DNA from: Marsupella aquatica
Taxonomy: Eukaryota; Plantae; Marchantiophyta
Reading direction: 5' to 3'
DNA length: 64,000 bases
Assembly (NCBI GenBank): GCA_973895155.1
Contig: OZ316898.1
Coordinates: 16,475,420-16,539,419 of the forward strand
A program made the translations under genes and the position numbers. Below the pieces are notes generated by a model. That model was not told the DNA's origin, searched no databases, and saw nothing but the letters and a program-made list of their open reading frames with translations. Of the stretch, positions 1-37,776 are shown piece after piece; within the stretch, counting starts at the first letter, position 1; each line of letters starts with the position of its first letter.

Positions 1-5
1 TGGAC

Positions 6-3000
6 GTGGCGGAACACCCTAATCCATCTGACGAGGCTGAGTGCTATCGTGTGTCAACAAGAGCCGAACGGAAGGAAGAGAAGCAGGAGGAGAAACGCAG
101 GAAAAAGCAAGATACTACTCCGGTGCAGCCAGCGATAGATATACCCCCGAAGAAGGACGATGACTACCGACGGGATGACCCGAAGCTATTTTTCCCCCGC
201 ATCGAAGAATTGGTAAAGAAACAGTTGGAGGCCTACGAAGCTCGGGAATACCAGAAGGCAATCGATAAGGACATCAAAGCAGCTGAGACAGCCCGGCGAC
301 AGGAGCAAGAAAAGCAAGATAAGCAAGAGGAAGCCAAGCAGCAACCGAAGGAAGAAAAGAAGGAGGACTATGATATTAAGGAGGATGTGAAGAGTTGCCC
401 GGTTACAGCAACGGTAGGACAACTGCTGCAAAACAATCCACAGTACAAACGACAACTGAGGGAGTTGCTTACGGGTCGACGACGAAGACGACTACCCCGA
501 GTTGGGACCACGGATTGCAACATGATATGCGAGGACCTGGGAGCGCCGGACATCTCTATTGAAATTAATAATTGTACCATCAGGATGGTTCTTGTAGACG
601 GAGGAGCGGGAGTCAACATCATGATGGAAGAAACGTCAGTCAAGTTAGGATACCTCACGTATCAACCCACAGCCCGAGCTATCAGATTAGCAAACGGGGC
701 AAGGGTACTTCCATTGGGCACGCTTACACGGGTACTCACTCTGGTAGGAGGGGTGGAGTTCTATCTCAACTTCCTAGTCATGAGGCCGGTTCGGCCCTCC
801 TCTTATCCGGTCCTCCTAGGCAGGCCGTGGCTGTACGGTGGCCGTGTGGTCACGGATTGGGGAAAGAAGGAGCTACGGTTTGGGACACCCACAGTACGGG
901 TATCATGGGCAATGGACAATTATCAGGGCGAAACCCCATAGGGACCCGAGGAATATGATTCGGAGACCTCGGAGGAAGAGGAACTCAACATGATTGAACT
1001 CATCTCGTCCCTGTCCGAGGAAGATGTCTTCAGAATTGAGGCAACCCGCGAAACACATCTCCTGAATTACCCGAAGGCTGCTATTGAGCCCACCCCAAGC
1101 ACCTCTACTGCCCGGGATGAGGAAACACAAAAATGACTCATCGATACGGAGGACCTGGCTCCAGCTAAGCAGGGAGCCGATGTTGCTTCTACCAGTGCAG
1201 AGCCTCATGACCACGAACCAGCCAAACAACCGGTCGGGGCTGAAACCCCGAGACCAAGACATAAGAAACGAGTCTCCTGGGATCCGTCCATCTCGCAGTT
1301 GGAGGAAGTAACTCCAATCCCGAGACCAATCCCGGTTCCACCCATGTACGGAGGATTTCGGTTAGCTGAACTTGATGCGAGCCTGGACCCAAGCTTGCGG
1401 AACCAGGTTGAAGTCATCAGGAAGGAGCACTACCGGAAGTACACCATTGGGATGGATAAATCGTTTAACCTGGGCCACGCTCTGATAGGGGAGGCGGAAA
1501 AGTCTATCCAAGCTCTGCTCAAGGAATATGAAGATACGTTTGCATGGAGCCATCACGATTTAACAGGAGTCTCCCCCGAGTTAGGAGAACACACGATCGA
1601 TTTGAATCTGGGGGCCCATGCAGTACAGCAGCGACAACGTCGCATGAACCCAAGGTACTCCATCTTAGTGAAGGAGGAAATTGATCGTCTCCTCGCCGCA
1701 AATATCATCTACCCGGTAATGGCCAGTGACTGGGTCTCTCCCATCGTCATTGTACCAAAAAAGGGAGGAACGGACAAAAAACCTAAGATCCGGATTTGTT
1801 AGGACTATCGTAAGCTGAACGACGCGACCCGAAAAGACCATTACCCATTACCATTCACGGATATGGTTCTAGATATGGTAGCCCAAAATGAAATTTATAC
1901 ATTCCTTGACGGATATTCGGGTTATAACCAAATCTGGATTCGCTTCTCGGATCAGCTCAAAACAACGTTCACTACGGAATGGGGGACTTTCGCATTTTGG
2001 AGAATGTCGTTCGGATTGTGTAACGCTCCGGCCATGTTTCAGCGACTCATGATGAATATCTTCCATGATTTCCTATGGGAATTTCTGGAGATATTTATCG
2101 ACGACTTCGCCATCTTTGGAACTGTCGCCATGCACCCCGAACACCTAAGACGTACGTTCCAACGATGCCGAGAGGTTAACCTCAAACTACATCCCGCTAA
2201 ATGTTTTTTCGGGGTAGAGGAGGGAGTATTACTCGGGCATCGTGTGTCCAAACGGGGTATCGAGGTGGACCAAGAGAAGGTCGCGGCCTGGATGGCGATG
2301 GTGTTTCCTGTAGATCAAAAAGCGGTACGATCCTTCTTGGGCTATGTAGGGTATTACCGTCGGTTTATTAAAGACTTTGCTAAAATAGCGTTGCCCTTGA
2401 CTGAGATGATGAAAAAGGACGCGGTGATCGAGGAGACACCTAGGAGACGGATTGCTTTCAAAGAACTCCGTAAAAGACTCACCACCGCACCTATCATGGT
2501 CACTCCAGACTGGAATAAGGAGTTCCACGTGTATGTTGATGTGTTAGGGTTCTGTATTGGATCCGTGCTCAGTCAGCTTGATGAGAACGGACGCGACCAC
2601 CCCATCTACTTCGCTAGCCGTCAATTATTCATAGCCAAAAAGAATTATTCCCCCACTGATCGAGAAGCTCTGGGAATAATCTACTCGTGTAAAAAGTTCC
2701 GACACTATCTGCTAGGCTACAAGGTCATATTCCACACGGATCATGATAGCCTGAAGTACATGGTCAACAAAGCGAACGTGACGGGACGGATAGCCCGGTG
2801 GGTGCTACTTCTCCAGGAATTTAACTACGAAGTTCGGGTTTGGCCCGGAAAGGCATACCTCAATGCCGACTTCTTTTCAAGGCTGGACGGCGTACCAGTC
2901 GATCAGCCAATTGATGATATTTTTCCGGATGAGGAGTTGTTCCACGTAGGGGCGGGGACGCCAACGTGGTATGGCTCAATAATCACCTTCCTCTTGACAG

Positions 3001-4324
3001 GCCGCATCCCTGACAGCATCAATCAGGAAGCCGCCGCTATGTTTCTACGGAAATCCGGGCCTTACGTCATGGTACAAGGTCACCTACATAAGGAAGGAGT
3101 TAATGGGAAGTTACGACGCTGCTTGGAGTATAAGGAGACGCTTATCATGATGCGGGCCTTGCATGAAGAAGAAGCTAGAGGCCATTTCGCGGCTATCACA
3201 ACAGCCCGAAAGATTCTGGACTCCGGATATTGGTGGCCTACGTTGCATCGGGATGTACAATGCTTCATCAAGGGCTGTGACCTGTGTTAGCGGGCTGGGG
3301 CCCCAAGACGAGCTCATCATCACCCTCTCACGTCCGTACTTCCATTAGCACCGTTCGAAAAGTGGGGTATTGATTATATCGGGCCATTTACTCCCGTTAC
3401 CCGAAGACGAAGATGCAGGTACATCCTGCTAGCTATTGATTACTCCACCAAGTGAGTCAAAGCACGGGCTACGGTGAAGGATGACGCCGCAACCAGCACC
3501 AGGTTCTTATATGAACAGATTTTCACCCGGTTCGGACCACCCTTAGAGTTGGTAAGCGACCGTGGAACACACTTCCTCAATGACACTGTAGCCCAACTTA
3601 CGGAGCGTTACCTAGTCAAGCACCGCAAGACTACCCCGTATCATCCTAAAGCCAACGGGATGGCAGAGAGAGCAAATGGTATCATTGGGAAGATCCTCAA
3701 CAAAACTGTAGCTGCGCACAAAATGGATTGGGATGATAAGTTGTACGCAGCGGTGTACTCGTATAATCTAGCTTACAAAACTACTACGAGTCACAGCCCG
3801 TACTTTCTCGTGTTCGGCCAATATTCGTTGGTGCCCGTCGAGTTTGAAGTACACACTCCACGGGTCAGCATTCGGGATCGCTTACCTGAATCTGAAAGTT
3901 TGTCAGACCGAGCTTATCAGATTGAAGCCTTGGAAGAGGCACGGCTACTAGCAGCTCGACACGCCGTAATGAAGCAACTTCCAAGAAACAACATGACAAA
4001 GGACTACGGAAGGTCGACGTCGTGATAGGCGATCTAGTCCTTCTGTACGACAGTAGGTACATGCAGTTTCCAGGGAAGCTTCATACCCGTTGGTTAGGGC
4101 CCTTCCTAGTCAATCAGATCTACCCTAACAGATCGTTGGAGCTTGCGACGTACGCCGGCGATTTACTCCCCATGCGAGTTAGTTACGATCGTGTAAGGAA
4201 GTACCACCATCAAGACGACGACGCCGAGAGTGATGTTCGCGAGGACGCTTCACAATTAAGCAGGGAGCTATGTGACGCCGCCGGTACGGCGAGTAATGAG
4301 CAATTCAGTCTAAACCGTGCCTAG
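6..4324 (+). pseudogene. gag-pol of element A (protease, RT, RNase H, integrase), disrupted
   Basis: LVDGGAGVN protease, FLDGYSGYNQI and FIDDF RT, FASRQL RNase H, GYWWPTL and SDRGTHF integrase, GPF motif. In-frame stops at 941, 1136, 1802, 3290 and ~3455; frameshift near 3980. Confidence 0.92.
4258..4270 (+). promoter_or_regulatory. Polypurine tract of element A
   Basis: AAGCAGGGAGCTA directly before TGT, preceded by the GAGGACGCTTCACA motif shared with elements B and C. Confidence 0.75.
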
Positions 4325-4629
4325 CACGCGCATTAGGGGTATCTTAGGCCGCTATGATTAGCATAACGATAGTATTTAGGTAGCCATTATGAGTAGGAAA
4401 TCATTAGTCAATAAGGAGAATTCATGTTCGGGCTGGCGGCGCGTCGCCATTCGCACGCCCGGGTTACGAGCGTGGAGGGGCCCCTCCCTCGGGTCCGTAT
4501 AACAAACTTCGGGAGGGGTCCACTAACACGCGGTGACTCAGACCGGCGGAGTGGCCGGTACACTACAAGCGTGAACGGTTTAGCCTATAGGCAGCGAGGA
4601 GATGTCGGGGGATCGACAAGCCCTCAAGG

Positions 4630-4636
4630 TATAAAA
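4630..4636 (+). promoter_or_regulatory. TATA box in LTR A
   Basis: TATAAAA ~360 bp into the LTR and ~100 bp upstream of the ATG at 4738. Confidence 0.5.
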
Positions 4637-4737
4637 AGGGAGCCGACCCTTTGGAGTGCACCAGTCCATCAGTCCACGTGCCAGCTTTGACCCCAGCTCT
4701 CTCGTTCGCTCTAAGTCGCCACTACTATCTCCTCTGA

Positions 4738-7065
4738 ATGTCGCACACGATCCTCTCCAGCTCGGCCATTCGATTCAGGATGCAGTTCCTATCTACCGGA
4801 AGGCACTTGGCCAACTCATTGAAACATGCCAACCCACGCCGATACGAAATCGAACGCGAGTACGAGAGAGCCATCCGCCTAGCAGGACGACACCACTACA
4901 TCCTTAACTTTGACTACCCGTCTCAAAGCGAGCTTTACCGACCAGCAGAGGTATCTGGGTACTTCTTCAACGGAGACAAATATATCAGTTTCTGGGAAGC
5001 ATTGCTTCGGCTTCCGGACGAGGTCTTCAATATCCCGGGTACGATCGACTTGCAACGACATCACTTTGACCACATCCCTGCTCAGGTTCGGGCTATCATC
5101 AACAATGAGTCCAGCACTACCCGTTCGACAAGGTCGTCCGCACTTGCTTCGGAGAACTTCTACCAGCACCTGCAGAGCTTCATGGGAACTAGACCCGCAA
5201 CCACCAGTGCCAGCCCAGTGGACCGCATACCCGTACCCGTACCAACGCAGACTCAGGCTCAGGCTCAGCTTCAGTCTCAGCCTCAGCCTAGCCAACCCCC
5301 ACCGCCGATCGCCCCGCCAGCAGTACAAGTACGCTCCGTCATCAACGCTGTGGACCTTAGCGATGATGACGAGGCTACCCCACCCTTGCTCAGGCGGCCC
5401 AGAGGAGTAAACACCCAGGGGGCCGATACTACATCGTCCCCTCTCCATGCTCGGACCCAAGGAGCGGCTCCAGCAGACAACACGGTGACCGTGGCCGCCC
5501 CGGGACCAATACTAACGGCGGTAGCACTACCTATGCCCGATCGAGAGGATGGGGAGGTGTCACCTTCCCCGAGCCAGTCACGGGGGAAGAAGAGGAAGGA
5601 ACCCGCCACTGCATCCGGGTTACCATTGGCCACGGTAGCCGTGGCCAAGGTAACAATGCACCGCATGGGGGAAAACGTGCATAAGAACATCCTCCATCCC
5701 AAGCATGCGGTGTACCTGAAGACTCAGGGATTCGAGCACCTCGCCGCTCTGCCCTGGAACACTTGCAGGTACTACGAGGAGGACATGACAGAATTTGTCA
5801 AGAATTATGATGACACACGTCAGCATACTCGGCTGCGGGGAAGGAATATGTCCCTCATGGAAGAACGGCTCAAGATGATCTTCGGATTACCCGAAGGTGA
5901 CCATCAAGTCGAATCACGGGCTCCCGGGGGCAAGGGAGCCAAGTACCAATCCTTGAGTTTTCCCTCAGAAGGAGCAATGGACAACGGGTTCGTGATGAGG
6001 ACCTGCCTCATCCCCGAGATAGTTGAGCGACTGGAGTTCCAGAGGTACGCCCTCGACATGATGGAACCCCGGGGGGAGATCTCTGCCGCCCAGGTTATCC
6101 AGGTCGAGAACTATCGACCTAGGAAGTGGGCGTCGTACTTTGCTAAGAAATTCCATGAAGAGATGGAGCGGCGAAGGAAGACATTGTACATTGGCGGGAA
6201 GGCGTATTTTGCTAGCTACATCAAGATCATTCTTGAGTGGTACGCTCGATTTGATCGACAAACCCTTCCCCGTGTCAATGTTACAAAGCTGGTCCCAGCT
6301 AGGTGGGTTTTCCCGGCCTTGGAGAGATGGCCCCAACCCGAGGCCCGAAGTCCAGCGGACACGCCAGCTTCACCCACCCCACCTCCACAAGTAGTTGTAG
6401 TCGTAACCGAGGAGGTACCGGATGGGTCGGTTATCGCAACCGTTGATGCAATCCAACAGGCCGGGCTAAGTACAGAAGTCGGTACGGCGGAGTCCATGGC
6501 CCGGAAGGTAGCCTGTTTCTTCAATCAGGAGTTAGTTGCCGCAGTAAAGGCAGGTCGGGCCCAGTCAGAGGCCCTTCAGAGGATAGAGCGGTACCGGGTG
6601 GAGTCCGTATACTTAAAGAACAAAGTTGCAGCTCAAGAGGCTGAGCTTCTGCAACTACGACCCAAAGTTGCAGCCGTCGATGATTTGTTAGCAAAGGCGC
6701 ACGCCCTTACCGCCCTAGCCGAGCAGGCCAAAGCTGGGAATGAGGCCGAGATTGCACGACTCCGGAACCAGATTGACAGTTTGAAGAATCAAACTGTTAT
6801 CTGGCAGAAGGACCTGGAGGAGGCCGAAGAACGGGCCTAGCGGGACACTGCGGAGATAGCCACGCTACAGGCCGAAGTGGCACGGCTCCAAACCGAAGCC
6901 GAGAAGCAGGACCAGCTGGCGGGCAAGCTGACGAGCGACGCCCAGCAGTTGGAGGAGGCATGCCAGGAGGCCGTGGAGGAGACAGACGCGGCGAAGCAAG
7001 AGAACGAATCTTTACTGGACCAGGTCCAGCTCCTCAAGGCAGACAACGACAGACTTTGTAAGTAG
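4738..7065 (+). CDS. LTR-embedded accessory protein of element A (unknown N-terminal domain, Pro/Gln linker, plant-mobile-domain-like region, coiled coil); one internal TAG at 6838-6840
   Basis: 700-aa ORF continuing in frame to 7065; the segment EFVKNYD..TRLRGRNMSL..IFGLP aligns by eye with the family-B ORF. Confidence 0.75.
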
Positions 7066-9009
7066 CGGGATGGCCGCTCCCACTCGGGCGGCTCTGGCAA
7101 GCATACCAGGCATTAGCGGTGGAGTAGGAATAGAATAGGGTTAGGAGTAGCTAGGTCAGGCTATTGGGACAGGCACCTGCCTTAGTTACAGCAGTACTGC
7201 CATGCTGTCCAGCCTGCGTAGATTAGGATCTTCTAATAAGACACAGCCGTTTTCGGCCTGACAGTCAGATTAGTTAGGACCTAAGTCAGCGAATCTTCAG
7301 GCGGGAGGACACTCCGTTCCCCGGCCCTTAGTATTTAGTGCACCCCTCGGTAGAGGCAAGGGGGGGTTTTAGTCTCAGAGTTGGACATCCGTGGTATGTG
7401 CGGGGAGTCCCGATCTCTGGGAGTGAAAGAGTACCAAGGGGAGGGGGTAGGACTAAGCTTGCCGGGCGAGTGCGGAGCCGGGCTCCGTTGTAGTATACTC
7501 TCTCGGCCTTGAACCTGTTCATTCCGGAGCTATCGGGTCAACCAAGTGTACGCACATGTCCCCTATGTAGTAAAATCCTTTCCCATTATTTCCTTCGTGT
7601 AAATCGAGATTGTATGCTTGTGCGCGTGTATGTGTGTGTGAATCTCGTGTATAGGTGACAACGCCGGGCCGAACGCACTACCCAAGTCGTGCACGGGGTG
7701 CAGCTTGCGGGGATGTGGTTGCGAGCACGGTTGAGGACCTGTATCATAGAATCCGGATCGAAGGCGGACAACATGAAGGCTTAGAAGTCCTTAAGCCGGG
7801 GTCGATCCTGTTATCGACTAAGGTACGTTCCGGCGGCGGAACACAAACCATACCTAGGAGATGTCTGTATCTAACAGTAGGCGCACTTAGCGCTAGTTTA
7901 CGTGAATTAGGTGCATTACGCGCTTCCCTCCCTGCCCGAACCCTCATATTTACGAAGGTGGTGCCCGTTTAAAGCTGAAGCCCGAGTTTAGGCCAAGGCT
8001 GATAACGTGACAGCTTTGGCCAATCCTCCAACAAGAAGAAGATGCCACCCTAGAAGATGATGATGCTGGAGGAGATCATGACCTGGTACATCTGAAGAAG
8101 AAACTTTTCCAAGACTCAAGTGTTCACGAGGTCGCTTCACATTTGAGGAGGGGGTTATGTGGAAAGGTAAAAAGGAGCTACGGAGTGAAAGTGATCCATT
8201 TTAAAACATTTTAACCTTACTTGAAGCTTATTTAGGTTTATCCGTCACCCCTTAATCCATTTTAAGCCTCAAAGGAATGTTATGGAAGAAAGCTAAGAAT
8301 TTTGAGTTTGGAAGGAAGAATCGCTTCGGACAAACAATCGTTTTCAAAGAAATCCGAAAGAAATCGCTCAGAACCGAAGCTGAAGAATCGCTTTGGAAGT
8401 TGGAAAATCGGTTTAGACTTTTGGAAGCAACTTTGACGGATGATTGCGGATCGGTCCGATGTCGGTTTGAGGAGATTTTTGGTGTGTTGGAAAGATCTTA
8501 TCAAGGGCTATAAGGAGAATTTAATTTTGGTCCCAAAAGACCAACTTCAGAATAACCCAAACCGATTCTCCAAGGTTTTTTGGCATATGTTACTTAAATC
8601 GTTTTCTATCTCTTTTCTCACCTCTTGAGCCTTTTCATGAGTTAGATAGAGTAGGATATAGAGGGACATAGTTTAGTGTACCTTTAGGAATTAGATATAG
8701 AGAGAGTCTTAGTCTTAGTTTACCTTTTAGGACCTTTAGTTTAGATGAGAAAAGGTTTTTAGGCTTCTAAACCTTTTGGCATCTTAAACCTTTTGAGGGA
8801 GCCTTACAAGTGGACTCCCAAGATCATGATTCATTGTCTTTTCTTCAACATTGATTTTTGACCAAGTGTGGGTCTTTTTCTCATGCCAAATTGGGCTTAG
8901 GAGAAAGAATTTAATGGAGAAGACTTGTACCACTCACATCAATTGAATTTCAAATATTTCATGAATCAAACTTAAGTATTCAAGTTTTGATGTTTGAATT
9001 AGTTGTAGG

Positions 9010-9156
9010 TGTTATGAATACACAAGATGATAGTAGTCAATAATCCCCACTCACTTCCATTATGCCAAGGACTTATATAGTCCAGAAGGGTTAACATGGT
9101 TGGGTTAATGTTAACCTATCCTATACTAGGGTTAAGTCATATTATGGGTTATAACA
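9010..9156 (-). repeat. Copia 3' LTR (147 bp)
   Basis: Identical to 14656-14802. Confidence 0.95.
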
Positions 9157-9495
9157 CTTCCCCTTGGTTACTTGGACGGGGTGTCAAGGAACCACACATT
9201 TAACCCTAGTTTAAAAGTGGGAGTCACTTATGATGTAGCCTCATCAAACCTTGCTGCTTTCCTCTCAAGGAAGAGTACTACCATCATTACAATTTGTGGT
9301 CCCTAATTCAGAAAGTCTCTAATGTGTATGCTCTAAGTCTAAAAGTAGCCTATTATTGTCTAAGCCAGTGGGCTAAGAGTAAGTAAGCGTTTATTTGTTA
9401 CTCTAGTCGGGGTAGTATTGTATTCATGACGGGGGAACATGTGTCTCTCTGTAAACTGTTCGTTAGATACTACGATTTAGTAGTTTGTCGAGGTT

Positions 9496-12400
9496 CTACT
9501 TCGATTTTGCGTTGGCTGTGTGTTCGTGTCGGGAGTTGTCGTTAGTCGAGGAGGTTAGGGAGGAGAGACGATGCATTCCAATGGCACTGACCTGCTTTCG
9601 ATGTGTAGTCGCTGGTAGCGGCTTGGTGAAGAGGTCGGCGCAATTGTCTTGTGAGCTTATCCACTTTACTTGTATTTGCTTTCCGCTGTGTTCGTGCGTA
9701 AAGAAAAATTTCGGGTCTATGTGCTTGGTTCGATCGGTCTTCATGTAGCTTGTAACTATCTGGTCGACGCATGCCCTATTGTCCTCGTAGATGGTGGTTG
9801 GATTTGTGAGTAAGGTTTTTCCTGTCTGTTTGAGTATATGTGTGATTATACTACGGAGCCAAATCGCTTCGCGGCATGCCTCATAGAGGGCAATTACTTC
9901 GGCGTGATTCGATGACGTTGTGGTTAGGCTCTGCTTCGTGCTTCTCCAAGATATGGCGGTTTTACCCTGCAAGAAGACGTATCCTGTCTGCGACTTTGAA
10001 TCTTGGGGGTCTGAGAGGTATCCAGCGTCCGCGTATCCTGTAAGTTCATCCTCGCTTTCGTTGGGGAAGAATAGTCCCATGTCAATTGTTCCTTGGAGGT
10101 ATCGGAATACTCGTTTTATGCCGTTCCAGTGGCGTATTGTCGGGTGCGCGCTATGTCGTGCGAGGAGGCTCACTGCAAAGGATATATCCGGTCGGGTGTT
10201 GTTGGCCAGGTAAAGGAGGGCTCCGATAGCCGATAAGTATGGCTTATCTGAATCTAGTATTGGTTCGTTGTCCTGTCTTTGCCTGAACATGTCCTTCGCA
10301 GTGTCTAAGGATCTCAACTCCATTGGTGTTGATACCGGGTATGCCTTTTGCATATTGAATTGTTGGAGGATTTTGTTTGTATAGGTAGACTGGCTAATGA
10401 ATGTGCCTGTCTGTAGGTGATCGAACTGAAGGCCGAGGCAGTAAGTCGGTTCTCCTAGTTCTTTCATCTCGAAAATGCCCTTCATTGTGTTGATTGTTTG
10501 TCGTAATAGTCGTTGTGTACCGAAGAGATTAATGTCATCGACATATAGCGCTAACACGACGAACTCTGTGTCTACTCTTTTGATGAATATACAGGGCGCT
10601 ATGTCTTCTGTAATAAATCCGAGTGCTTGTATTTCGGTTTTAAATTTCTGGTACCATATACGGCCGCTTTGTTTCAGGCCGTTTATGGATTTCAATACTT
10701 GCACAGCAAATGCCTGCTGTCCAGTCCTTCGTTTTCCGGGGTACTGGAGTGGTGCTTTCTGTGTGTTGCCACTGCTCAACACAAGGCCTTTACAATCATC
10801 ATTAGGGATAATCTGGTCAATTCCCGACTTCATATCCTTGCTCAGGTTCGGGTATTGCTTCCCCTGAATGTGTTCTGCCACTCTTTCGAGTAATTCCTTT
10901 GGTGCTTTCATATGAATTTCGGAGTCTAAGACTCCATATAGGTATGCCGTTACTACGTCCATAAGGATATTGCATAACTGGTGTTTGCGAGAGAAAGCAA
11001 TTAAATACCTGAATGTCGTCACGTCCATTACTGGTGAATATGTTAGATCATAGTCCCTGCCTGGGATCTGGGTGTATCCTTTTGCTACTAACCGCGCTCT
11101 GTATCTGATAACATCACCTTTTGCATTTCGCTTTTTAATGAACGTAAATCGGCTGTCTGTATAGTCATTGTTAGGATCAACTTGTTTGACTGGTCCGAAG
11201 ACTTGTCGACGGATTAGTGCATCCATTTCTGTGTCAATGGCCTCTTTCCAGTGTGGCCAATCTGACCTTGTTTGTGCTTCTTTGATTGTTAAAGGGTCCG
11301 AAGTATCATTGGTTATTTCTTGAGCTATATGGTAAGCAAATTGTTCGTCGACAGTAGTGTTTTGTCTCGTGTAAATTTGTCCTGTATGCTTATACTGAAT
11401 TGACATCTCCTCATTACCCGATATGTCTGGTGTCTCGGATTCATTATTAATGAAGTGAAAAGTAGTTTCAGGAATTACCTGATGGGGGCGTCTTTGGCGG
11501 GGTCGGGTATCATGTGATCCTGGTGGCCTACCTCTTTTCGCCTTAGGGGCAGCTACTGTTGCTGGAGGAGTATTCATTTGTACTCTGGCTGGTACATTGG
11601 TTGCCTCGTTGTGTGATTTTGTAACATTTGCTGCATCATTAAATGCATCTGGGATCTTATCCAGCATCTCGTGGAGGTGGAGTAATCGTCTAACTTCTGC
11701 ATCCGTTTGTTTCGTCCTCGGGTCCTGGTTGAGTAAGTTTCTGCTGTTCCAGTTGATCTGGTGTGGGTGCAAGTCCCCTGTCATTTGTTTGTCTATGCTT
11801 AGGGTGGGAAAAGTGTCTTCGTAAAAATGACAATCTGTATGTCTGGCCTTAAACACATCGGCTGTTGTCGGTTCCAGGTAGCGAATGATCGAGGATGAGT
11901 CATTTCCGATGTAGATTCCTTCTTGTCTTTGAGGTCCGATTTTTGTACGCTTGGGTCCCAGTATTGGGACCATGACTTTGCATCCAAATACCCGCAGGTG
12001 TGACAGGTCTGGAGGTAGTCCGAACGCTAAGTGGTGTGGAGTCTTTGTGTTGAACGCCGATGGTCTGTATTGAAGCAGTGTGGCAGCATGGAGGACTGCG
12101 TGTCCCCATGTGGATAGGGGTAACTTTGAATTCATTAACAGGGGTCTGGTTATCATCTGTATACGCTTGATAACGGATTCTGCCATTCCGTTTTGGAAAT
12201 GGACATATGGGACTGAGTATTCAGTGTCAATGCCCGCTGCCCAGCAAAACTCATCAAATGCTTTTGAGGTGAATTCCCCTGCACCATCCACTCTCAGTTT
12301 CCGAATTGGATGTTCTGGGAATTGTGCTTTAAGCTTTAGAATGTTGGCCAGTATCCTAGCGAAGACCAAGTTGCGTGTAGAGAGTAGAGATACTTGCAGC

Positions 12401-14108
12401 CATTTGGTCGAAGAGTCGATGATGGCCAGGAAATACTTAAACGGTCCACTTGGTGGGTGGATCGGGCCGCATACATCTGCGTTCAGGTGTTCCAGGAAGT
12501 TCGGGATGGCATAGATTGTCTTCTGTATTTGTGGGCGTGTAATCAGCTTCCCCTGAGAGCACGCCAGGCATTGCCTTTGTTTTGTTGATGGGTTGACTCC
12601 TTGGGGGATTCCACGGGAGTCATGAATAATTCTGCGGTACATATTTACTCCGGGTGTCCCAGTCGACAGTGCCATAAGTATGTGATATCAGGTAAGTCTG
12701 CAGTGACATAGTGAGCTTGAATTTGAGTTGCGTAGAGGCCTGGTGGTATAAGGGGTAAGGTTTCTTTAATATGTATACCTTGTTCGGTAACCTCCACGAT
12801 TTGGAGGGTATCTTCCTCGTCTGTTTTCACTGTGCGCAGTTGATATTTATTTGCGACTATGTCTCGGAAGCTGATGAGGTTCCTTGTAGCTTGCGGGGCG
12901 AATATCGCTGCTTCGATGGCGAGTGCAGTGCCTCCTGGGAATATTACCGTGGCTGTGCCTTTACCCTCCTCAATCTGGTTTGTGCCTGAAATGGTGGTCA
13001 TATGCCGGGCTGATGGGGTAATTGAGTGGAAATATTTCTTGTCCTTTAGTATTGTATGAGACATACCGCTGTCAATTATGCCCAGATTGGGGTCTTGTAG
13101 TGTGTAGGGTCCTCCTGCTGGAGTTACTATGTGGGTCTCCACTTCATGAGGTTGTTCGGGGTCTTTGTAGGTGGCTATTGCTTCTTCTAGCTCCATGTAG
13201 TTCCCTGCTGGGTTTTGTTTGAGTCTAGCTCTTGATTCTGTATGTTTCCTGGCTGTTTGGTCCGATGCCCAACAATTTTTCTTCAGGTGTCCTATTTTTC
13301 CGCATCGGTAGCACATCCTGTCATCTTTGGTGTTGTCCGATGCATTATCACTCATCCTGCCTCTGCCGCCTACTCCCCTGCCTCTTGTGTTGTATGATTG
13401 TCGATATCCTCGACCTCTGTAGGATTGGTTTCTACCTCTGCCTTGGTATCCGCCTCTGCCTCTTGGTCAGCCTCGTCCCATGTTATCTCGCTGATAGTAA
13501 TTTATCTCTGGTTTGTGTGGTGGTGGTTCTGTTCCCGCAGGTCTTTTTCGGGCGTTTTGCATGGCGACCACCTGTTGCTTCTCTTCTACAAGTAAATGTG
13601 CGATAAGATCTGAATATGTGGTGAATTGCATATTTCGGTACTGTGTACCGAGTGCAATGTTTGATTCGGGGAATGTACTCAGTGTCTTGTCGATCTTATC
13701 TGCGTCTGGGACTGGATGGCCGCAGAGTTCTAGTTGAGAGGTAATTTTAAATAAAGCGCTGTTGTAGTTAGCAATGGAAGTATGATCCATCACTCGTAGG
13801 TTGTACCAATCGCGGCGAGCCTCAGGAAGCCATATTTCGCGCATATGGTCGAATCGGGCCTTTAACTTGTCCCACAGGAGTCATGGATTGACTTCGTTCA
13901 TGTATTGGGATTTTAGTGAGGGAACCAAGTGCTGGCGCAAAAGGAACACGGCCTTGGCCTTCTGTTGTAGAGTCAGATTTTGGTCTGTGATTAATGTATC
14001 TTCAAGCTCCAACGATGCGAAGTATGTTTCCGCATCTACGGCCCATGTCAAGTAGTTGCTGCCGTCTACTAGTAGGGCTGGGAAATGTAACTTCTCCAAT
14101 GTCGCCAT
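9496..14108 (-). pseudogene. Copia gag-pol (gag, CCHC, PR, INT, RT, RNase H)
   Basis: CYRCGKIGHLKKNC, IIDSG, WHCRLGHP, LYVDD, GYADAGY and ADLFTK motifs; TGA stops at 13881 and 13467; frameshift at GHPG (~12650). Confidence 0.92.
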
Positions 14109-14640
14109 GTCTATTTCGCCTGATTTTGGGCCTTATAAATATATGGTGTTCCTTTGTATCAAATGCCTATGACTTTCGCCTTGTCCCGCCCGATCGATCG
14201 GCTGTTGTGATGGATCAAGTTAACCAAAGGAAAGAGAAACGATAGCGATCCTTTCGCTCAAGGCACGGGACTCATCTGCCCCTTGAATCGCATCCAAATT
14301 GTCCCCGATGGAGTTCGTTCGTATGTCCTTGTGTGCGGTCCTCAAAGTTTTCAGTTTTCGCCAATGTCTTTTATTTTGTTTTTCGCGTCTCGTCGCGTTG
14401 TCTCCTTCGTTCAAGGTTGAGAATCTTCGCTCGTGATTAGGCTCGACGCTCTATGGCCAGTTCTTTGTTCTTCGATCATAAGCTTGTTTTCTCTATTCTC
14501 GGGAGGTAGTTAGGCGGTTATTCTCGCCATTAGAGCAAAAAACACACAACATTGTGTTGTTTTCTTTGTGTGGACCTCGATCTATTGAGTTGTCAGATTT
14601 TGGGGAGGGAGCATATGTAAAAAAAAATGTAATTGAGCAA

Positions 14641-14655
14641 GTCGCGCTGATAACG
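14641..14655 (-). promoter_or_regulatory. Copia primer-binding site (half-tRNA-Ile type)
   Basis: CGTTATCAGCGCGAC abuts the 5' LTR and lacks the TGG needed to pair with a tRNA CCA end; resembles the complement of a tRNA-Ile anticodon arm. Confidence 0.7.
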
Positions 14656-14802
14656 TGTTATGAATACACAAGATGATAGTAGTCAATAATCCCCACTCAC
14701 TTCCATTATGCCAAGGACTTATATAGTCCAGAAGGGTTAACATGGTTGGGTTAATGTTAACCTATCCTATACTAGGGTTAAGTCATATTATGGGTTATAA
14801 CA
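14656..14802 (-). repeat. Copia 5' LTR (147 bp)
   Basis: Identical to 9010-9156. Confidence 0.95.
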
Positions 14803-15231
14803 GTAGGAAATAGATTTGAATGGATAACTAAGGTGTGCCTTTGAAATCTAGTTGAAATGGGAATTGTACCAACCTTCATGACGTAAAACCGATCACTAAT
14901 AAGTGTATAAGGAAGTTAGAAGGAAGAGAAAACCTTTCAATCTATCGAGAAGAAGCCAAACCTAAGGAATTTCATTTCAGCATTTGTGACATACTAATCG
15001 TTTCAGGATTATATAAGGAAAAACAGCAACAAAATCGCTTGGAGATTTCGAACATCACAAAACCTTGGTAAATCGCTTTGTTTATTCTTTACGGGACCGA
15101 ATTTTGGTATTTAAGGATAAAAGTATATACATTTGTATTATTCCACTTACCACATTACTTCTTGTACTCAAATCTCATGATAAACATATTTCATTTCGCA
15201 CGGGGCAAATGCATATCCCTCTTTTGAAGCC

Positions 15232-21628: not shown

Positions 21629-21629
21629 G

Positions 21630-24600: not shown

Positions 24601-24837
24601 GCCCAGTTCGTGCTTGCAAATGAGCCACCATTCTTTGCGAGCGGTCCTTACCCCTCTCCTCCTCTGGTCTTCCCTCCCGTTGGTCACTCCTAGCCGCCAA
24701 CGCTTAGCGCGCCCTAACCCTAATCGTGTTCTCTCCCCCGGCGTCCTTACTTCCGGCCTCGGCCCGGGTTCCATAGTCATCCTTAATTGTTTATATTTTC
24801 CTTGTCTTGTTACTATACTAAGGTGTTTCCAGGGTAC
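21630..24837 (-). mobile_element. Fragment D: more divergent copy of the family-B LTR with its accessory ORF (ORFs 24229-24852, 23308-24225, 21592-22932)
   Basis: Colinear with 26310-29450; interrupted by element B on the right and joined to MULE copy 2 on the left. Confidence 0.85.
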
Positions 24838-27800
24838 TGTGGTGCGTCCCATGGCTCCCTAAACCCAAGAAACCCCCCCAGCGCAAGCCAATTCCCGCAG
24901 GTTTCTCGCTTGGCGAGGCCGTTTCCGCGGCTTAGCGGCATGGGATGCTACTAACCTCCTTCTACTACTACTATTAACATTTTACACACATATACTGGAT
25001 AGATCCTTCATCGGGTCATGAGATACGTAGCCAGCCTAATCTAGGCCTTCCCTTGTCTTCCCCTCCGTCTTGTTAGGTATGTTTGGATTCCGCTGCCGGA
25101 ATGATCCCCAATAGGCTTGGTTAAGCCGCTAAGACCTCTCTCAGCTCGACACATCCAACTCTCACTCCCCTGCTTACTTTCCTTCCTCTATTGGTTGATG
25201 TGGGCACTCTTCACACAAGTTAATGCGACACACAAATAGCAAAATGACTCCTTCTGACTGAGTCATACCATGCACTTGCCATACAAACAGTACATCTCAT
25301 ACACAAGCTCTGCGAACTAAGCCGTGAGGCCAACTCTATTCAGCTCTTAGGCATGAGGAAACATGAATATACACAAGGTCACGGTATGACTAACCGAGAG
25401 CTTCTCTTACTACTTGATCCCAGCCCGGCTGGTGCAAACTAAAAACTTGCTAAAGAAGAGGCCCTGAGCTCCCCGCTGCCCAGGTACTTATCCTGGTAGT
25501 GGATCCGCCTAATTCTTTGCAGCCTAAGCCTAATCTACTTAACTGGATCTACCTATGTACAGCGAGGCAGAAGTACAAGTGTTGCTCTTACCAGTGGAAC
25601 CGCAATCCCACTAAGCTAAGTGTCAGGGCCACCTCCTGGTCCTGATCCTAATCCTAAACTTAGAGATCTGAGCCCGCTCTGCCCACTCACGCCTCCTCCC
25701 TCCACGTCCGCCCTTCCTAAAAGGAACGACGCCCTTGCACCATCACGACATCGGTGGTGGATCCTCAATGGACGCCGCCAACGCTCCCTCCGCAACCACT
25801 GCCGTAGGTTTGTTCTCTGACAGATTACCTGCCCTTGACTGAGTCAACTCTCCATCGGCCTGACTGGGCCCACCCTCGGCTTCGGCCTCGGCTCGGAAAT
25901 CATTCTCGGCTACGGCCTCAGCCTCAGCTTCGGCCACGGCCTCCCCGGCCTGCTCAAGAGGTGGATCTGGGTTACCGGCCTCATTACTGAGTAGTTCGGC
26001 TTGGGTCGCGCCATCCCCACCTTTGGTGATAGCGGGATCTATTGCCGTGTTCATGCCGGAGGTTGGTACCGGTTTGAGTACGGCTTGAGAGGTCGAATAA
26101 CCTCCGGACCCCAAAGGTTTCTGCTTCTTCTTCTTCACTATCTCCATAGCCGGTTCCTTCCCCTTGCCGCCAACGTCCGGCACCGGGCCGTGTGTCATGG
26201 CTGGTCATTCGGCAATTACCACCCCGGGTAACTGGTTTGCCCCAACGGGAGATGGACCTGATGCAGCTAAGCATTTAAATACTGCGGCTTGTTTCTTCAG
26301 CCGCTCTATTTGGTTGTCGGCCCGCCGCTGTAGGTTCTCCATCTTCCTCGTGATTTCCTCCAACTCCTCCTGGGTCTCATCCAGGTCCTTACGTGCCTCC
26401 TCCAGCTCATTTTTGGCTTCCTCCAATTCCCTGTGGGCTTCCTCCAATTCCTTCTTGGTGGTAGCCCTCTCCTCCTGGGTTGCTCTTAGCTCCTTGTTGA
26501 GCTCTGCTACGACCTCAGACTCCATGTTATTCATCTTGGCATAAGTCTGGTCGAGCTGGGCATCCTTCTCCCGCAGGTCGGCCTTGAAGCTGGCTGTCAG
26601 GGATGCAAGCTCCTGCTGTAGCGCAATAATCCCTTGATAGGATTTCCCTAACTCGGCCTCCTTCTGCTCAAGGGCTCTACGGATGACCTCGAGCTCTCCC
26701 TTCAGCGCCCTCTCCCTTCTCTGAGTCTCCGCCGTGACCCGGTTGTTGACTGCTATATGGGCCTCCTCTGCGTCTCTCAGCTCCTTCTTCCATTTCTCCC
26801 TGTCCTTGATTGCATCGGCCAATTCTCCCTGGGTCTGAGTCAGTTTATCCTTGATAATCTGATTATCAGCCTACGCAGTGTCCAACTGCCCCTGCATGAT
26901 GTTCAGCTCATGCCACTTAATCCGCAGTTCATCTTGGGCTTTCTTGGCCGCCCTTAGATCTTCAATCTCGGCTTCCATCCTCCTAAGCCGCCGGATGACC
27001 TCGTCCTTCTTGCTTCTCTCTAAAGCCACCGCTTCTTCTAATTGGTGCTTCTCCAACTGCTCCCTATGGAAAAAGGGTCCTACCTCCAACTCCTCCCCAA
27101 AGATGTCGAGCGCAAGTTCCCCACATATCTCACCATACTCCATGGCTCTATTTTTAGCGTAGGTGGAGTAAGTAGAAGTAATCGGCATCGCCCATCGCGG
27201 CCTCTGCTCCCAAGCCGTCTTGCGGATCTCTTCAATTGTGGCTAGAGGTTTGCTTCCTTTGTCGGCTAGCCGCCTGATGTCCTCCGGCCAATCTCCTCCT
27301 GGCAAATCCTTTTCCCTAGCCAGGGCTGCCTTTTCTGCTTCCCTAACTCGCTCCTGAAATTCCTGTGCCGTCTGCTTTATGTCGTCAAAGCTCGGGGGAG
27401 CAACATCTGGTGGGGGAGACTCTGGGCTACTCTGCTGGTTGGGGTCCCCTCGAACTACCCTTGGAAGTGTGGGGATAAACCGGCCACTGGTCCTTACTCC
27501 TGGAACGTGATGGTCCGACCCATAGCCGGAGTTATCATGGCTATAGTCCTCCACTGCCTCCTCCACCTCTTGGACTTCCGGCTTCTCCCTCTCCTCTTCG
27601 CCGGTAGGAGCTTCAGGCAATTCTGCCTCAGATTCAGAGCTTGAGACTCACACATATATTCGAACACCCGGCTTGGATTCTGGCCTGATTCTCTCCTTAT
27701 TTCCGGTAAAGGGGTTTTCCCTTCTAAGTCTGCTTAGGTTGACCTCTGGGGCAGTGTCCTATATTGGTGCCGCTGCCGAAGCTTGCCGTCTTTTCCTTCT

Positions 27801-29502
27801 CCAGCATTTTCAGCAGATTCTGCATGCTTGGTTGCTGCATCGGCAAGTCTTCCTTCCTTGGCCTAAACACCTGCCCAATCGTAGGGCTAACAGGTGGTTG
27901 AGGCTTCTCTGCTACCGGCCTCGGTGCTGGAGCTTCCTCGGGTGCCCTTACCTGTAGGGGAAGTACTTGGGCAAAGGTCTGACCTCTCGCATATCGGCAC
28001 AACAGCGGCATGTGATAGCCAAGCCGCGACACGCTCCCCAGGCCGATTACCTGCTGCTCCTCCTTTAAGATCTTCTTCAATTGGTTGAGGAGGTACCCGT
28101 TGTAGTCCAGGCTTGGGTCTGGCCTCTCTACCAGATAGACCTGTGCCTTGCCGATCTCTGCCCTCGGCAAGTTACAATGCATGGTCACCCGCAAGAAGTC
28201 AATCATCTCTCCTATGTGCGGGTTGGTGCAGGTGTTCCTGAAGAAGCCATTCTTCGTTGATGGCCCGGGGAACGACCGGAACTCCTTGTCAGGCAAGGTC
28301 TTCCTGGTATCAACTTTGGTCTTATTGCCTATCGGCAAGCCAAACACTTTGGCAATCACCTTGGGAGTAAGATAGAAATCCTTCCCATATATCCTTGTGG
28401 AATTGGTCGCGGGTTCCCATGACCCCACGAATTCTAATAGGTCTAAATTCGGCACCTCCGGCTTCAGCCATGGTAATCTTACAAAGGCCTCTAAGCCGGA
28501 TCCGGCCATGAAGCCTTGGTACTTCTTGGTCTGCATGGCCGTAAAGCATGCATCCTCCTCCCGTGCAAAATGTAGTTGCACCTCCTCTGGTAGGGTTGCC
28601 GCCCAGCCCTTCCAGGTGTCATCCCTGGTTGGAATGGCATTGATGGGATCGTCCTCCTCCTCTTCGGCTTCTTCCTGCCTCCTACTCTATTGCTCGGCTG
28701 GCTTCTTTGGTGCCGCCGACCTCGTTCTTTTTGCCGGGGTGGCTCCATCGTTGACGGCTCCCTTCCTCTTCATTTTGGCTCCCGTGGATCTCTCTCCTAG
28801 CACGGTTGCCTTTGTCCACCCTCCGTGCTACCCTTCAACTCCCAGTGTATGTTGTTGCAGCATTTGATGGCTTCTTGGATGCCGACAACTCTATCTTCGC
28901 AAAACAAAAGATCGTCGAGCTGATTTGAAGTAGGAGTCCACAAGAACTCGGCCTTGATAAGTTTGCCTCCTAAGAAAGCCGTCTTCTGCAGCTCCCACAA
29001 TCGAGCGAGCTCCTACCATTCTCGAGCTGCCCTTTCTGATTCTTCGTCCTCGTAAGTCTTGATGTACTCAGTTGCCCGTTCGAACAGGCATCCCCAGAAA
29101 TGTGTCGCTTGATTGATGTTGCTCATACCCTCCTTAGGTCGATCGTCGGTATCTACTCTCTCCCCGAGTGCTTGCCTAAGCAGCTGACAGTAGTTGGCCT
29201 CCCGTAGTCGTCTGCCTAGTTCGTGCTCGCAAATGAGCCACCATTCCCTGCAAGCGCTCCTTACCCCTCTCCTCTTCCGGTTCTTCCTCCCGTTGATCCT
29301 TCCTAGCCGCCAACGCTTAGCGCGCCCTAACCCTAATCTTGTTTTCACCCCCAGCGTCCTTACCTCCAGCCTCGGCCCGGGTTCCATAGTCGCCTCTAAT
29401 TGTTTATATTTTCCTTGTTTTGTCCCTATACTAAGGTATTTCTAGGGTGCACTCCTGCTTTACCCACTTAACTGGCCGAGTGATTCCTGGCTAGGCATCA
29501 CA
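24838..29502 (-). repeat. 3' LTR of element B (~4.67 kb)
   Basis: PPT AAGTGGGGAGCTA then TGTGATGC at 29502; ends GCACCACA at 24838 (7/8 inverted match); the same end precedes the PBS in the 5' copy. Confidence 0.85.
25743..29387 (-). pseudogene. LTR-embedded accessory gene of element B (ancestrally one ORF of ~1,200 codons)
   Basis: Several breaks are open in copy D or the 5' LTR and vice versa (TAG/CAG at 29013 and 26871, TGA/GGA at 26205, TGG in B where D has TAG at 24229); terminal stop shared with the 5' LTR copy. Confidence 0.8.
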
Positions 29503-35657: not shown

Positions 35658-35705
35658 TACCTACGCTTCCTTTCTAACTTCATATCTCACGGCTTAAGAA
35701 ATGCC

Positions 35706-35722
35706 CCCTCCATCTAGCGCCA
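35706..35722 (-). promoter_or_regulatory. Primer-binding site of element B (probably tRNA-Asn)
   Basis: TGGCGCTAGATGGAGGG 4 nt from the LTR end; matches the plant tRNA-Asn 3' end as I recall it with one mismatch. Confidence 0.7.
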
Positions 35723-35726
35723 AAAA

Positions 35727-37776
35727 TATGGTGCGTCCCATGGCTCCCTAAACCCAAGAAACCCCCAGCTCAAGCCGATTCCCGCAGGTTTCGCGCTTGG
35801 CGAGGCCGTTTCTGCGGCTTAGCGGCATGGGACGTTGCTAACCTCCTTCTACTATTACTATTAGCCTTTTACACACATATACTGGACAGATCCTTCATCG
35901 GGTCATGAGATACGTAGCCGGCCTAATCTAGGCCTTCCCTTGTCTTCCTCTCCTTCTGGTTAGGTATGTTTGGATTCCGCCGCCAGAATGATCCCCAATA
36001 GGCTTGGTTAAGCCGCTAAGACCTCTCTCAGCTCGACACATCCAACTCTCACTCCCTTGCTTACTTTCCTTCCTTCTGGTTGATGTGGGCACTCTTCACA
36101 CAAGTTAATGCGACACACAAATAGCAAAATGACTCCTTCTGACTGAGTCATACCATGCACTTGCCATACAAACAGTACATCTCATACACAAGCTCTGCAA
36201 ACTAAGCCGTGAGGCCAACTCTATTCAGCTCTTAAGCATGAGGAAACATGAATATACACAAGGTCACGGTATGACTAACCGAGAGCTTCTCTTACTACTT
36301 GATCCCAGCCCGGCTGGTGCAAACTAAAAACTTGCTAAAGAAGAGGCCCTGAGCTCCCCGCTGCCCAGGTACTTATCCTGGTAGTGGATCCGCCTAATTC
36401 TTTGCAGCGTAAGCCTAACCTACCTAACAGTAATCTACCTGCCCGAATCTACCTATGTACAGCAAGGCAGGAGCACAAGTGTTGCTCCTACCAGTGGAAC
36501 CGCAATCCCACTAAGCTAAGTGTCAGGGCCGCTCCTGGTCCTGATCCTAATCCTAAACTTGGAGATCAGCGCCCGCCCTGCCCACTCACGCCTCCTACCT
36601 CCACGTCCGCCCTTCCTAAAAGGAACGACGCCCTTGCACCGTCACAACACCGGTGGTGGATCCTCAATGGACGCCCCCAATGCTTCCTCCGCAACCACTG
36701 CCGTTGGTCCGTCCTCTGACAGATTACCTGCCTCTGACCGAGTCAACTTTTCATCGGCCTGACTGGGCCCACCCTCGGCTTTGGCATCGGCTCGGGGATC
36801 ATTCTCGGCTACGGCCTTAGCCTCGGCTTCAGCCATTGTCTCCCCGGCCTGCTCAAGAGGTGGATCTGGGATACCGGCCTCATTACTGAGTAGTTTGGCT
36901 TGGGCCGCGCCATCCCCAACTTTGGTGATAGCGGAATCTATTGCCGTGTTCATGCCAGAGGTTGGTGCCGGTTTGAGTACGGCTTGAGGGGTCAAATAAC
37001 CTCCGGACCCTGAAGGTTTCCGCTTCTTCTTCTTCACTATCTCCACAGCCTGTTCCTTCCCTTTGCCGCCAACGTCCGGCACCGGGCCGTGTGTCACGGC
37101 TGGTCCTTCGGTAATTACCACCCCTGGTAATTGGTTTGCCCCAACGGGAGATGGACCTGATGCAGCTAAGCATTTAAATACTGCGGCTTGTTTCTTCAGC
37201 CGCTCAGTTTGGTTGTCGACCCGCCGCTGTAGGTTCTCCAACTTCCTTGTGATTTCCTCCAACTCCTCCTGGGTCTCATCCAGGTCCTTACGTGCCTTCT
37301 CCAGCTCGTTTTTGGCTTCCTCCAATTCCTTATGGGCTTCCTCCAATTCCTTCTTGGTGGTAGCCCTCTCCTCCTGGGTTGCTCTCAGCTCCTTGTCGAG
37401 CTCCGCTACGACCTCAGACTCCATGTTATTCATCTTGGCATAAGTCTGGTCGAGCTGGGCGTCCTTCTCCCGCAGGTCGGCCTTGAAGCTGGCCGACAGG
37501 GACGCAAGCTCCTGCTGTAGCGCAATAATCCCTTGATAGGATTTCCCTAACTCGGCCTCCTTCTGTTCAAGGGCTCTCCCTTCAGCGCCCTCTCCCTTCT
37601 CTGAGTCTCCGCCGTGACCCGGTTGTTGACTGCTATATGGGCCTCCTCTACGTTTCTCAGCTCCTTCTTCCATTTCTCCCTGTCCTTGATTGCGTCGGCC
37701 AATTCTCCCTGGGTTTGAGTCAGTTTATCCTTGATAATCTGATTATCAGCCTGCGCTAAGTCCAACTGCCCCTGCA
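35727..37776 (-). repeat. Truncated 5' LTR of element B, including the coiled-coil end of the accessory ORF (36642-37776)
   Basis: Colinear with 24838-26896 with a few percent mismatches and a 19-bp deletion near 37577. Confidence 0.9.

Follow-up and report, generated by a model that had tools for sequence, protein, structure and literature searches.

A protein gene with a predicted VANC21-like core in the probable 3′ long terminal repeat of a liverwort Ty3/gypsy element

The LTRs of plant retrotransposons are generally viewed as non-coding, and the extra ORFs of these elements as internal and without known function. A 64,000-nt stretch of the Marsupella aquatica genome (contig OZ316898.1, positions 16,475,420–16,539,419; hereafter the window) raises the question of whether a complete protein gene can reside within the LTR of a Ty3/gypsy element and, if so, how it would be expressed and what it would do. 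The element belongs to a family named here A and was compared with two further gypsy families of the window, B and C (Table 1). In our preferred reading, to which we assign a probability of about one half, the gene is an accessory gene that has entered U3, where it has a promoter of its own, and encodes a DNA-binding, likely anti-silencing protein.

Table 1. Features of the family A locus and of its family B counterparts (window coordinates)
Feature	Position	Strand	Remarks
Family A internal region	1..4233	+	gag end, protease, RT, RNase H, integrase
Conserved pre-PPT motif and polypurine tract (PPT)	4234..4270	+	common to families A, B and C; three matches in the window, each ahead of a TG junction
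Family A 3′ LTR, 3,742 bp, TG...CA	4271..8012	+	probable extent; A 5′ LTR outside the window
TATA box and C/T-rich leader downstream	4630..4636	+	likely promoter of the LTR gene, from sequence
LTR gene, 775 codons	4738..7065	+	encodes an N-terminal domain, a disordered KKRK-bearing linker, a VANC-like core and a coiled coil
Conserved N-terminal helical domain, about 110 aa	4738..5070	+	without clear structural match
Core domain, residues 302–521	5641..6300	+	predicted VANC21-like fold; weak Transposase_32 (Pfam) link
C-terminus, coiled-coil-like	6490..7062	+	Pfam coiled-coil matches below cut-offs
Internal stop private to this copy	6838..6840	+	sense codon in other copies (>99% of depth, 4/4 runs)
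Seven TGTA words clustered in a TG-rich tract	7489..7651	+	likely 3′-end signal near the R/U5 border
29-nt motif common to LTRs A and B, short inverted repeat	7828..7856	+	likely U5 cis-element; no Rfam match
Insertion target of A: integrase end and PPT of family C	8013..8157	+	empty-site contigs join at 8013; C LTR starts at 8158
Family B 3′ LTR, 4,663 bp	24840..29502	-	homologous but broken gene
Family B 5′ LTR remnant	35729..37776	-	C-terminal part of the gene, then PBS and gag

Pfam searches indicate the protease–RT–RNase H–integrase order of Ty3/gypsy elements in family A, whose internal region is interrupted by several stops and one frameshift; this copy of the element is decayed. The pol genes of A and B each have one RNase H, with no second or extra RNase H found by Pfam in either. 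The A integrase extends as far as the PPT, and its tail, judged by length only, leaves no room for a chromodomain; Pfam gave no chromodomain match in B pol. Family A is a non-chromovirus Ty3/gypsy element, likely from a liverwort, and its pol is 58–65% identical to that of B at the amino-acid level. The A PPT, AAGCAGGGAGCTA, is followed by TGTGACG at 4271, and the junction, which the preliminary description had called the same as in B, is nearly the same (42 of 46 nt identical). The surrounding region is a nest of insertions.

Very probably, the whole of 4271–8012 is the 3′ LTR of family A and carries the complete gene; the gene-in-LTR architecture, proposed from the letters of the DNA, is supported by terminus and depth data, which are indirect evidence, since the 5′ LTR of A lies beyond the window. 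The LTR opens with TG directly 3′ of the PPT and closes with CA (CGTGACA at 8012). In three of four runs the contigs track A to exactly 8012 and then diverge, and empty sites of family C join at 8013, likewise in three of four runs; a contig of run X1 covers 7974–8077 with zero differences. Past 8012, one contig reads TAGCCTTTGTTTTGGCG, resembling the start of the B PBS, TTTTTGGCGCTAG; the TAGC of this PBS-like join, found in that contig only, mirrors the GCTA preceding the LTR start. The depth relative to pol in runs X1, X2 and X3, which is summed contig depth, not copy number, and could be inflated by non-autonomous copies, was 2.8, 3.2 and 4.6 before the ORF, 5.3, 6.9 and 5.9 over it, 2.3, 5.0 and 10.2 after it and 0.05–0.36 in the flank (run X5 was omitted because of its small share and erratic depth). 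The depth bin immediately before 4271 was already high in X2 and X3. Within 4271–8012 the pre-PPT motif does not recur and nothing matches a PBS, and an Rfam search over 4200–8100 gave no matches. Family B provides a parallel, where the C-terminal part of the gene is repeated in the 5′ LTR, the repeat being seen for the last 2 kb of the B LTR.

The same arrangement might be read as an extra ORF of the usual Athila type, placed between pol and an LTR that is short, with a vestigial PPT/TG junction at 4270 and with the depth coming from non-autonomous copies. This is the known position of such ORFs (PMC7264820, PMC6317226), the location of the A 5′ LTR outside the window is in line with it, and a purine run, AAGGGGAGGGGG, occurs at 7436; as an alternative PPT this run was rejected, being followed by TAGG, not TG. 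Against this explanation, which we consider improbable, the conserved pre-PPT motif stands solely before 4271, the part of the LTR preceding the ORF already has 2.8–4.6 times the depth of pol, and the B 5′ LTR includes the coding C-terminus. That the assembly is chimeric here, or that another, nested element mimics an LTR, deserves hardly any credence: the region is full of nested insertions and no single contig covers the whole stretch, but the X1 contig matches the 3′ border without a difference, pol, PPT and TG are unbroken in a layout like that of B, and the termini are TG...CA.

Returning to the gene in the LTR, the ATG at 4738 is followed by 700 codons up to the internal TAG, and the frame runs on to the TAG at 7063–7065, 947 bp before the LTR end. 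The earlier account of a TATA box at 4630, a 700-aa ORF reaching 7065 past one TAG and a tail of about 950 bp ending in CGTGACA was accurate in each respect. The TATAAAA at 4630 is the sole match of the TATA/AATAAA patterns across LTR A, where the pattern search revealed no TATA box 3′ of the ORF; the single TATA pattern match of LTR B likewise lies upstream of its gene. KKRK and RRRK are present. Hydropathy peaks at 1.3 in the best window, which leaves no transmembrane segment, and an env-like membrane protein was rejected on that ground. The C-terminal parts of the A and B proteins are coiled-coil-like, as had been noticed, with sub-cut-off Pfam matches to coiled coils only; Pfam assigned no family to the A ORF or the B cores.

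The alignment of the A and B proteins reported from short motifs was borne out: these motifs are in register, and A residues 322–504 share 25–27% identity with both B copies (E 8e-16 and 2e-15). The accompanying statement that the two LTRs have no DNA similarity holds broadly and fails for the 29-nt motif near the 3′ end. This motif is identical at 25 of 29 positions (blastn E 0.006), reaches a local score of 36, where none of 200 shuffles exceeded 35, and contains a 5–6-bp inverted repeat with a 4-nt loop. The protein has 67 homologues, and the named ones are from liverworts, including Calypogeia fissa and Riccia sorocarpa; a word-based search with the A core returned nothing at 385–1225 aa, and one match with the alignment as the query, while a metagenome contig scan for P0008 gave 103 pattern matches, none confirmed. 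The B gene, the one for which dN/dS was computed, is under purifying selection with a value of about 0.2 (0.18, 0.22 and 0.23 in three gene parts between the two B copies, p ≤ 3e-5); between the B 5′ and 3′ LTRs the value is 0.59 (p 0.08). The selection values and the liverwort homologues support the initial idea of an old, selected lineage trait; since A and B, which are 35–40% apart in pol, both have the gene after the PPT, the design appears to be old and selected.

The model of the core domain (pLDDT 93.6) found its best Foldseek match in VANC21-DNA (probability 0.99, TM 0.54, E 0.017). The comparison of the core model with VANC21 gave a Z-score of 8.0 (7.9–8.0) over 204 aligned residues with an rmsd of 4.1, the next Z-score among 48,161 chains being 2.3; the identity is 10%, and Z-scores near 8 are, by the tool's own grading, common. 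The core is thus predicted to have the VANC21 DNA-binding fold, and modelling suggests that the protein probably binds DNA. Four of 56 aligned relatives match Transposase_32 (PF20167) weakly (best E 1.6e-5, 25 bits vs. the Pfam cut-off of 45), and A itself has no match. The N-terminal domain model is moderate (pLDDT 64), with a best Z-score of 6.3 to helical bundles and many near ties; a sequence search of the PDB returned coiled-coil noise only, and the comparison with viral structures revealed nothing clear. A protein with the predicted VANC21-like core would likely help the element to evade silencing by the host. According to PMC13547354 and PMC5418596, the silencing-promoting protein MAIN has the same fold, so the direction of action is not given by the fold, and the modelled role of countering host silencing is an evenly balanced proposition.

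TGTA words are typical of plant 3′-end signals. LTR B has four of them, 534–446 nt from its end, a distance that matches the A cluster; this match and the position of the cluster 3′ of the ORF indicate a U5 that is likely short, at about 350 bp. The ORF is unlikely to lie in U5, and this placement was rejected, as the cluster puts U5 downstream of the ORF. For the same reason, the original suggestion of an ORF in R/U5 that would open the genomic RNA as its first cistron is unsupported as stated; the TATA box upstream of the ORF, then taken as a sign of R/U5, fits a dedicated U3 promoter equally well as a 3-kb R. We lean towards U3. The TATA box at 4630 would then drive the gene transcript, which would end at a poly(A) site near 7650 and could originate from either LTR or from solo LTRs. 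The genomic RNA would start 3′ of the gene and carry it at its 3′ end, so that gag would be the first cistron; the second promoter that this requires, 3′ of the ORF where no TATA box was found, is putative. The protein, presumably nuclear, would form oligomers through the coiled coil, recognise short DNA words that are specific to the family in its own element and counteract host silencing.

Perhaps the genomic RNA comes from a single promoter at 4630 and has the gene first, within a 3-kb R, in which case translation of gag-pol would require either splicing that removes the gene or internal ribosome entry. The only TATA matches of LTRs A and B, both upstream of the gene, agree with this, as do two donor-like GTAAG sites of B between the TATA box and the gene; however, A has no donor-like site match, and from general LTR biology the 5′ copy of the complete 3′-end signal would have to be ignored 3 kb from the cap, and we regard this explanation as unlikely. 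A further possibility, less likely than not, concerns the protein itself, which, encoded in the LTR, might not be an anti-silencer but a self-limiting repressor, a chromatin-tethering targeting factor for the integration complex or an RNA/particle chaperone. MAIN/MAIL1, described in PMC13547354 and PMC5418596 as having the same fold or domain class and a silencing role, would agree with such functions, as would the absence of motif arrays in A; the function of Athila-domain proteins is not established. Yet the gene diverges much faster than pol (25–27% vs. 58–65% identity) while being under purifying selection within a family, which fits a changing specificity, and B retains a family-specific CG word. 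The B element is CpG-poor but rich in GCCG words: AAGCCG occurs 29 times vs. 7.4 expected, and GCCGA, under synonymous shuffles, 13 times vs. 6.1 in pol and 19 vs. 6.2 in gag. No repeated 5–7-mer stands out in the non-coding LTR parts of A or B, and the CCCG words of A, chosen post hoc, are raised in the copia control too.

The preferred reading, an accessory gene in U3, can be compared with known systems. The Athila/OTA non-chromovirus elements (PMC6317226, PMC7264820, PMC11728184) are likewise Ty3/gypsy elements without a chromodomain, and their extra ORFs (Transposase_32/Athila ORF-1, PMD, Transposase_28) are also in sense orientation, 3′ of pol, and combine a globular domain with a coiled coil. 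However, the published position of those ORFs is internal, 3′ of pol and ahead of the 3′ LTR, whereas in A pol itself extends to the PPT and the repeat that follows holds the ORF; the A-type protein also differs in having no transmembrane segment and no relative at the Pfam cut-off. The additional RNase H of Tat/Ogre/Retand is absent from A and B and, according to PMC13468544, from the liverwort Tat Z2 as well. Set against Phygy/Selgy, characterised as short elements whose interior is coding almost throughout, B gives a mixed picture: its internal region is nearly all coding, but with two complete LTRs the element would measure about 15.5 kb. VANC21 of the Arabidopsis VANDAL21 (PDB 9lnj/9lnk; PMC5735166) has the fold predicted for the A core over 204 residues and, as PMC13547354 states, is element-encoded with a coiled coil, like the A gene product; VANDAL, in contrast, is a MuDR, Mutator-like DNA transposon, and A is a gypsy retrotransposon. 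For VANC factors the target word lies in tandem arrays in the non-coding parts of the element, whereas the non-coding LTR parts of A and B have none, the GCCG word of B is dispersed, and a VANC-like activity of the A and B proteins is a prediction. The sag gene of MMTV (PMC3026287) is also an entire accessory gene within an unusually long LTR, but it belongs to an animal retrovirus with a 1.3-kb LTR, is described as expressed from spliced RNAs and encodes a protein unrelated to that of A. Retrosat2/RIRE3, Ogre and other long-LTR plant elements (PMC3485330, PMC6317226) have LTRs of 3–5 kb as well, but these are described as non-coding, with ORF0 upstream of gag-pol.

Each insertion yields two copies of a gene that resides in the LTR, and such a gene outlasts solo-LTR formation. 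Tentatively, a liverwort Ty3/gypsy lineage may have kept a VANC-like anti-silencing gene in U3 since before the divergence of families with 60%-identical pol, each LTR or solo LTR being a self-contained cassette whose family-specific factor would shield the CG-containing words of the family from methylation in trans; this would be a retrotransposon counterpart, possibly the older form, of the VANC system. The predicted fold connects Athila-type extra ORFs with VANC and MAIN/PMD in a bryophyte and bears on the proposed dicot host-gene origin of VANC, and the LTR gene allows the idea that retrotransposons encode anti-silencers with sequence specificity to be tested directly.

In the window, the pol of family A is of gypsy type, with protease, RT, RNase H and integrase, and extends to the PPT 5' of the A segment, the presumed 3' LTR of this Ty3/gypsy family; beyond the segment lies family C, the gypsy element into which A inserted. 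The layout given in the preliminary description, comprising the PPT/TGT junction, a TATA box, a 700-aa ORF with its extension and about 950 bp up to CGTGACA, was borne out (see the table). The LTR-borne proteins of families A and B do align, as was claimed: residues 322-504 of A show 25-27% identity to both family-B copies (E 8e-16 and 2e-15). The reported lack of DNA similarity to LTR B holds except for one 29-nt motif near both 3' ends (25/29 identical, E 0.006; score 36 versus a maximum of 35 among 200 shuffles), which contains a short inverted repeat. A motif of ~25 nt just 5' of the PPT is kept in families A, B and C, the LTR of the last carrying no sign of the gene.

Features of the A segment and of the rest of the window (positions within the window)
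Feature	Position	Strand	Remarks
A segment start, TGTGACG	4271	+	directly after PPT
TATAAAA	4630	+	upstream of A ORF
A ORF	ATG 4738 to 7065	+	700 codons, one TAG, frame continues; 775 codons in total
A segment end, CGTGACA	8012	+	947 bp past ORF
Family C integrase end, PPT, LTR	after 8012		third gypsy family
Pre-PPT motif	4234-4270, 8122-8157, 29503-29538		three gypsy families
Copia element	9010-14802	-	within family C's LTR
Two related elements	15150-21630		opposite orientation
Second B-type LTR	21630-24835	-	86% identical, head to tail with B's 3' LTR
GCCG words of family B	24840-35728	both	abundant in all genes
124-bp tandem repeat	42055-42551		just before GTPase frame
YchF/OLA1-type GTPase frame	42727-44139	+	470 codons, uninterrupted

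The 5' LTR of A lies upstream of the window, and the LTR extent was judged from contigs of public sequencing runs, five of the six listed containing the A stretch whole or in part. At the right end, contigs in three of four runs track A exactly to 8012 and then diverge; all three loose ends listed past this position start with TAGCC, and one of them reads TAGCCTTTGTTTTGGCG, resembling the start of B's PBS, TTTTTGGCGCTAG. Insertion-free family-C contigs join at 8013 (three of four runs), and the stretch 7974-8077 is covered by a single contig that shows no difference; the 8012/8013 junction is therefore real. If the ORF were instead located between pol and a short LTR, pol-level depth would be expected, but the segment reaches 2.3-10.2 times pol: median relative depths in runs X1, X2 and X3 were 2.8, 3.2 and 4.6 for the pre-ORF part, 5.3, 6.9 and 5.9 for the ORF and 2.3, 5.0 and 10.2 for the post-ORF part, and 0.05-0.36 beyond 8068, with X5 left out and with summed contig depth being distinct from copy number and possibly also raised by non-autonomous copies. 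In X2 and X3, the depth is already high in the bin preceding 4271. The pre-PPT motif is followed by a TG junction at each of its three occurrences in the window, and neither this motif nor a PBS match was found inside 4271-8012. In family B, the final 2 kb of the LTR, including the C-terminal part of the gene, recurs at the 5' end before the PBS and gag. The A segment is a real feature, and a gene-in-LTR architecture, with a left terminus known from this copy alone, is assigned a probability of about 0.88. In X2, a contig was found in which 7025 is connected back to 4274, a hint that A LTRs are rearranged or in tandem at some other place.

TGTA words are a mark of plant 3'-end signals. Seven of them cluster 524-365 nt before the LTR end in A, and four are located 534-446 nt before it in B; therefore, the poly(A) site is likely to lie ~350 nt from the end, and U5 would be short, holding the shared 29-nt motif and excluding the gene. 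The U5 part of the earlier R/U5 placement of the ORF conflicts with this site, which falls 3' of the gene, and seems very improbable. The A gene probably belongs to U3, although the failure to find a TATA box 3' of the A ORF counts against this, as do donor-like sites upstream of B's gene, which are absent in A; a position within a long R appears rather unlikely. If the genomic RNA starts 3' of the LTR gene, gag would come first, special translation would be unneeded and the gene would have its own promoter, as does the internal gene23 of Grande (PMC7264820).

The AlphaFold2 model of the core (residues 302-521), built from 56 sequences, has a pLDDT of 93.6. Its top Foldseek match was DNA-bound VANC21 (E 0.017, probability 0.99, TM 0.54; next match E 2.1), and a full structural search among 48,161 chains gave Z 8.0 for VANC21 (7.9 in a repeat; 204 aligned, rmsd 4.1), with a runner-up at Z 2.3. 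Taken by itself, a Z-score of 8 is moderate; the match to the predicted structure, however, extends over the entire domain and is well separated from all others. Pfam Transposase_32 was matched by four of the 56 aligned relatives, all below the cut-off. This domain is present in Athila extra ORFs (PMC11728184). MAIN, a silencing factor of the host, is a structural homologue of VANC, and coiled-coil oligomers have been modelled for both VANC and Athila-domain proteins (PMC13547354); PMD domains are found in gypsy elements (PMC5418596). The A protein contains KKRK and RRRK; no transmembrane segment was found in it, nor a clear structural match for its N-terminal domain.

VANC21 binds a 9-nt word arrayed across non-coding parts of its own element (PMC5735166). 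In the non-coding portions of LTR A and LTR B, no 5-7-mer stands out against 100 shuffles. In the whole B element, AAGCCG occurs 29 times versus 7.4 expected (corrected p 3e-6), GCCGA in pol and gag exceeds synonymous shuffles, although the family is CpG-poor; GCCG words may be considered a candidate recognition word of B's LTR protein. The best words of A are weak (CCCGAA, 17 versus 5.6 expected, corrected p 0.17), CCCGA is also raised in the copia control, and a dispersed target word would be a lead for B only.

The A copy in the window is dead, its pol being interrupted by several stops, and the gene of family A is likely intact: the stop at 6838-6840 is private to this copy, with a sense codon in >99% of the depth in all four runs. 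The differences listed versus run contigs are mostly transitions, the type left by methylation. The dN/dS values, which refer to family B and not to A, were 0.18 for the core (205 codons), 0.22 for the N-terminus (92 codons) and 0.23 for the rest of the gene (411 codons) between two B copies (divergence 0.14; p at most 3e-5 for all three), and 0.59 (p 0.08) between the B 5' and 3' LTRs. Searching 1.84 billion representatives with a profile of the window's three cores yielded 67 proteins at E up to 0.001; three of ten core homologues looked up belong to Calypogeia fissa and one to Riccia sorocarpa, and C. fissa also accounts for all six proteins matched by the N-terminal domain. These species make a liverwort the likely host. 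Two homologues (P0074, P0080) share the full design of N-terminal domain, linker, core and coiled coil. In two others, P0057 (R. sorocarpa) and P0059, the core is located behind a DDE_Tnp_4 fragment, which would represent either a gene-model fusion or a core domain also carried by Harbinger-like DNA transposons.

Elsewhere in the window, the second B-type LTR, truncated by a DNA transposon and missing approximately the first 50 bp, is possibly a recombination or 2-LTR product. The copia element is young: its two 148-bp repeats are identical, and its target duplication is GTAGG. Each of the two related elements has a C-terminal CxC...CKH motif, which we take to be SWIM-like; a Pfam match was not found for them, and they are likely DNA transposons. 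The GTPase frame is a possible retrocopy.

It is common for plant non-chromoviruses to carry extra ORFs, but published descriptions put these in the internal region (PMC6317226, PMC7264820). Long-LTR elements such as Retrosat2 have their ORF0 outside the LTR (PMC3485330), and MMTV sag is the clear precedent for a gene within an LTR (PMC3026287). The A element differs from Tat, having no extra RNase H, and from Athila in ORF position. In the literature search, outside which lay most subscription papers, the VANC21 structure paper among them, neither a plant element whose LTR contains a gene nor a retrotransposon protein resembling VANC was found. The trait was originally described as shared by divergent families, and this view is upheld: an Athila/PMD/VANC-type accessory gene, with function and transcript layout being inferred, was very probably relocated into the LTR and is kept in two deeply diverged families, A and B, whose pol is 58-65% identical.
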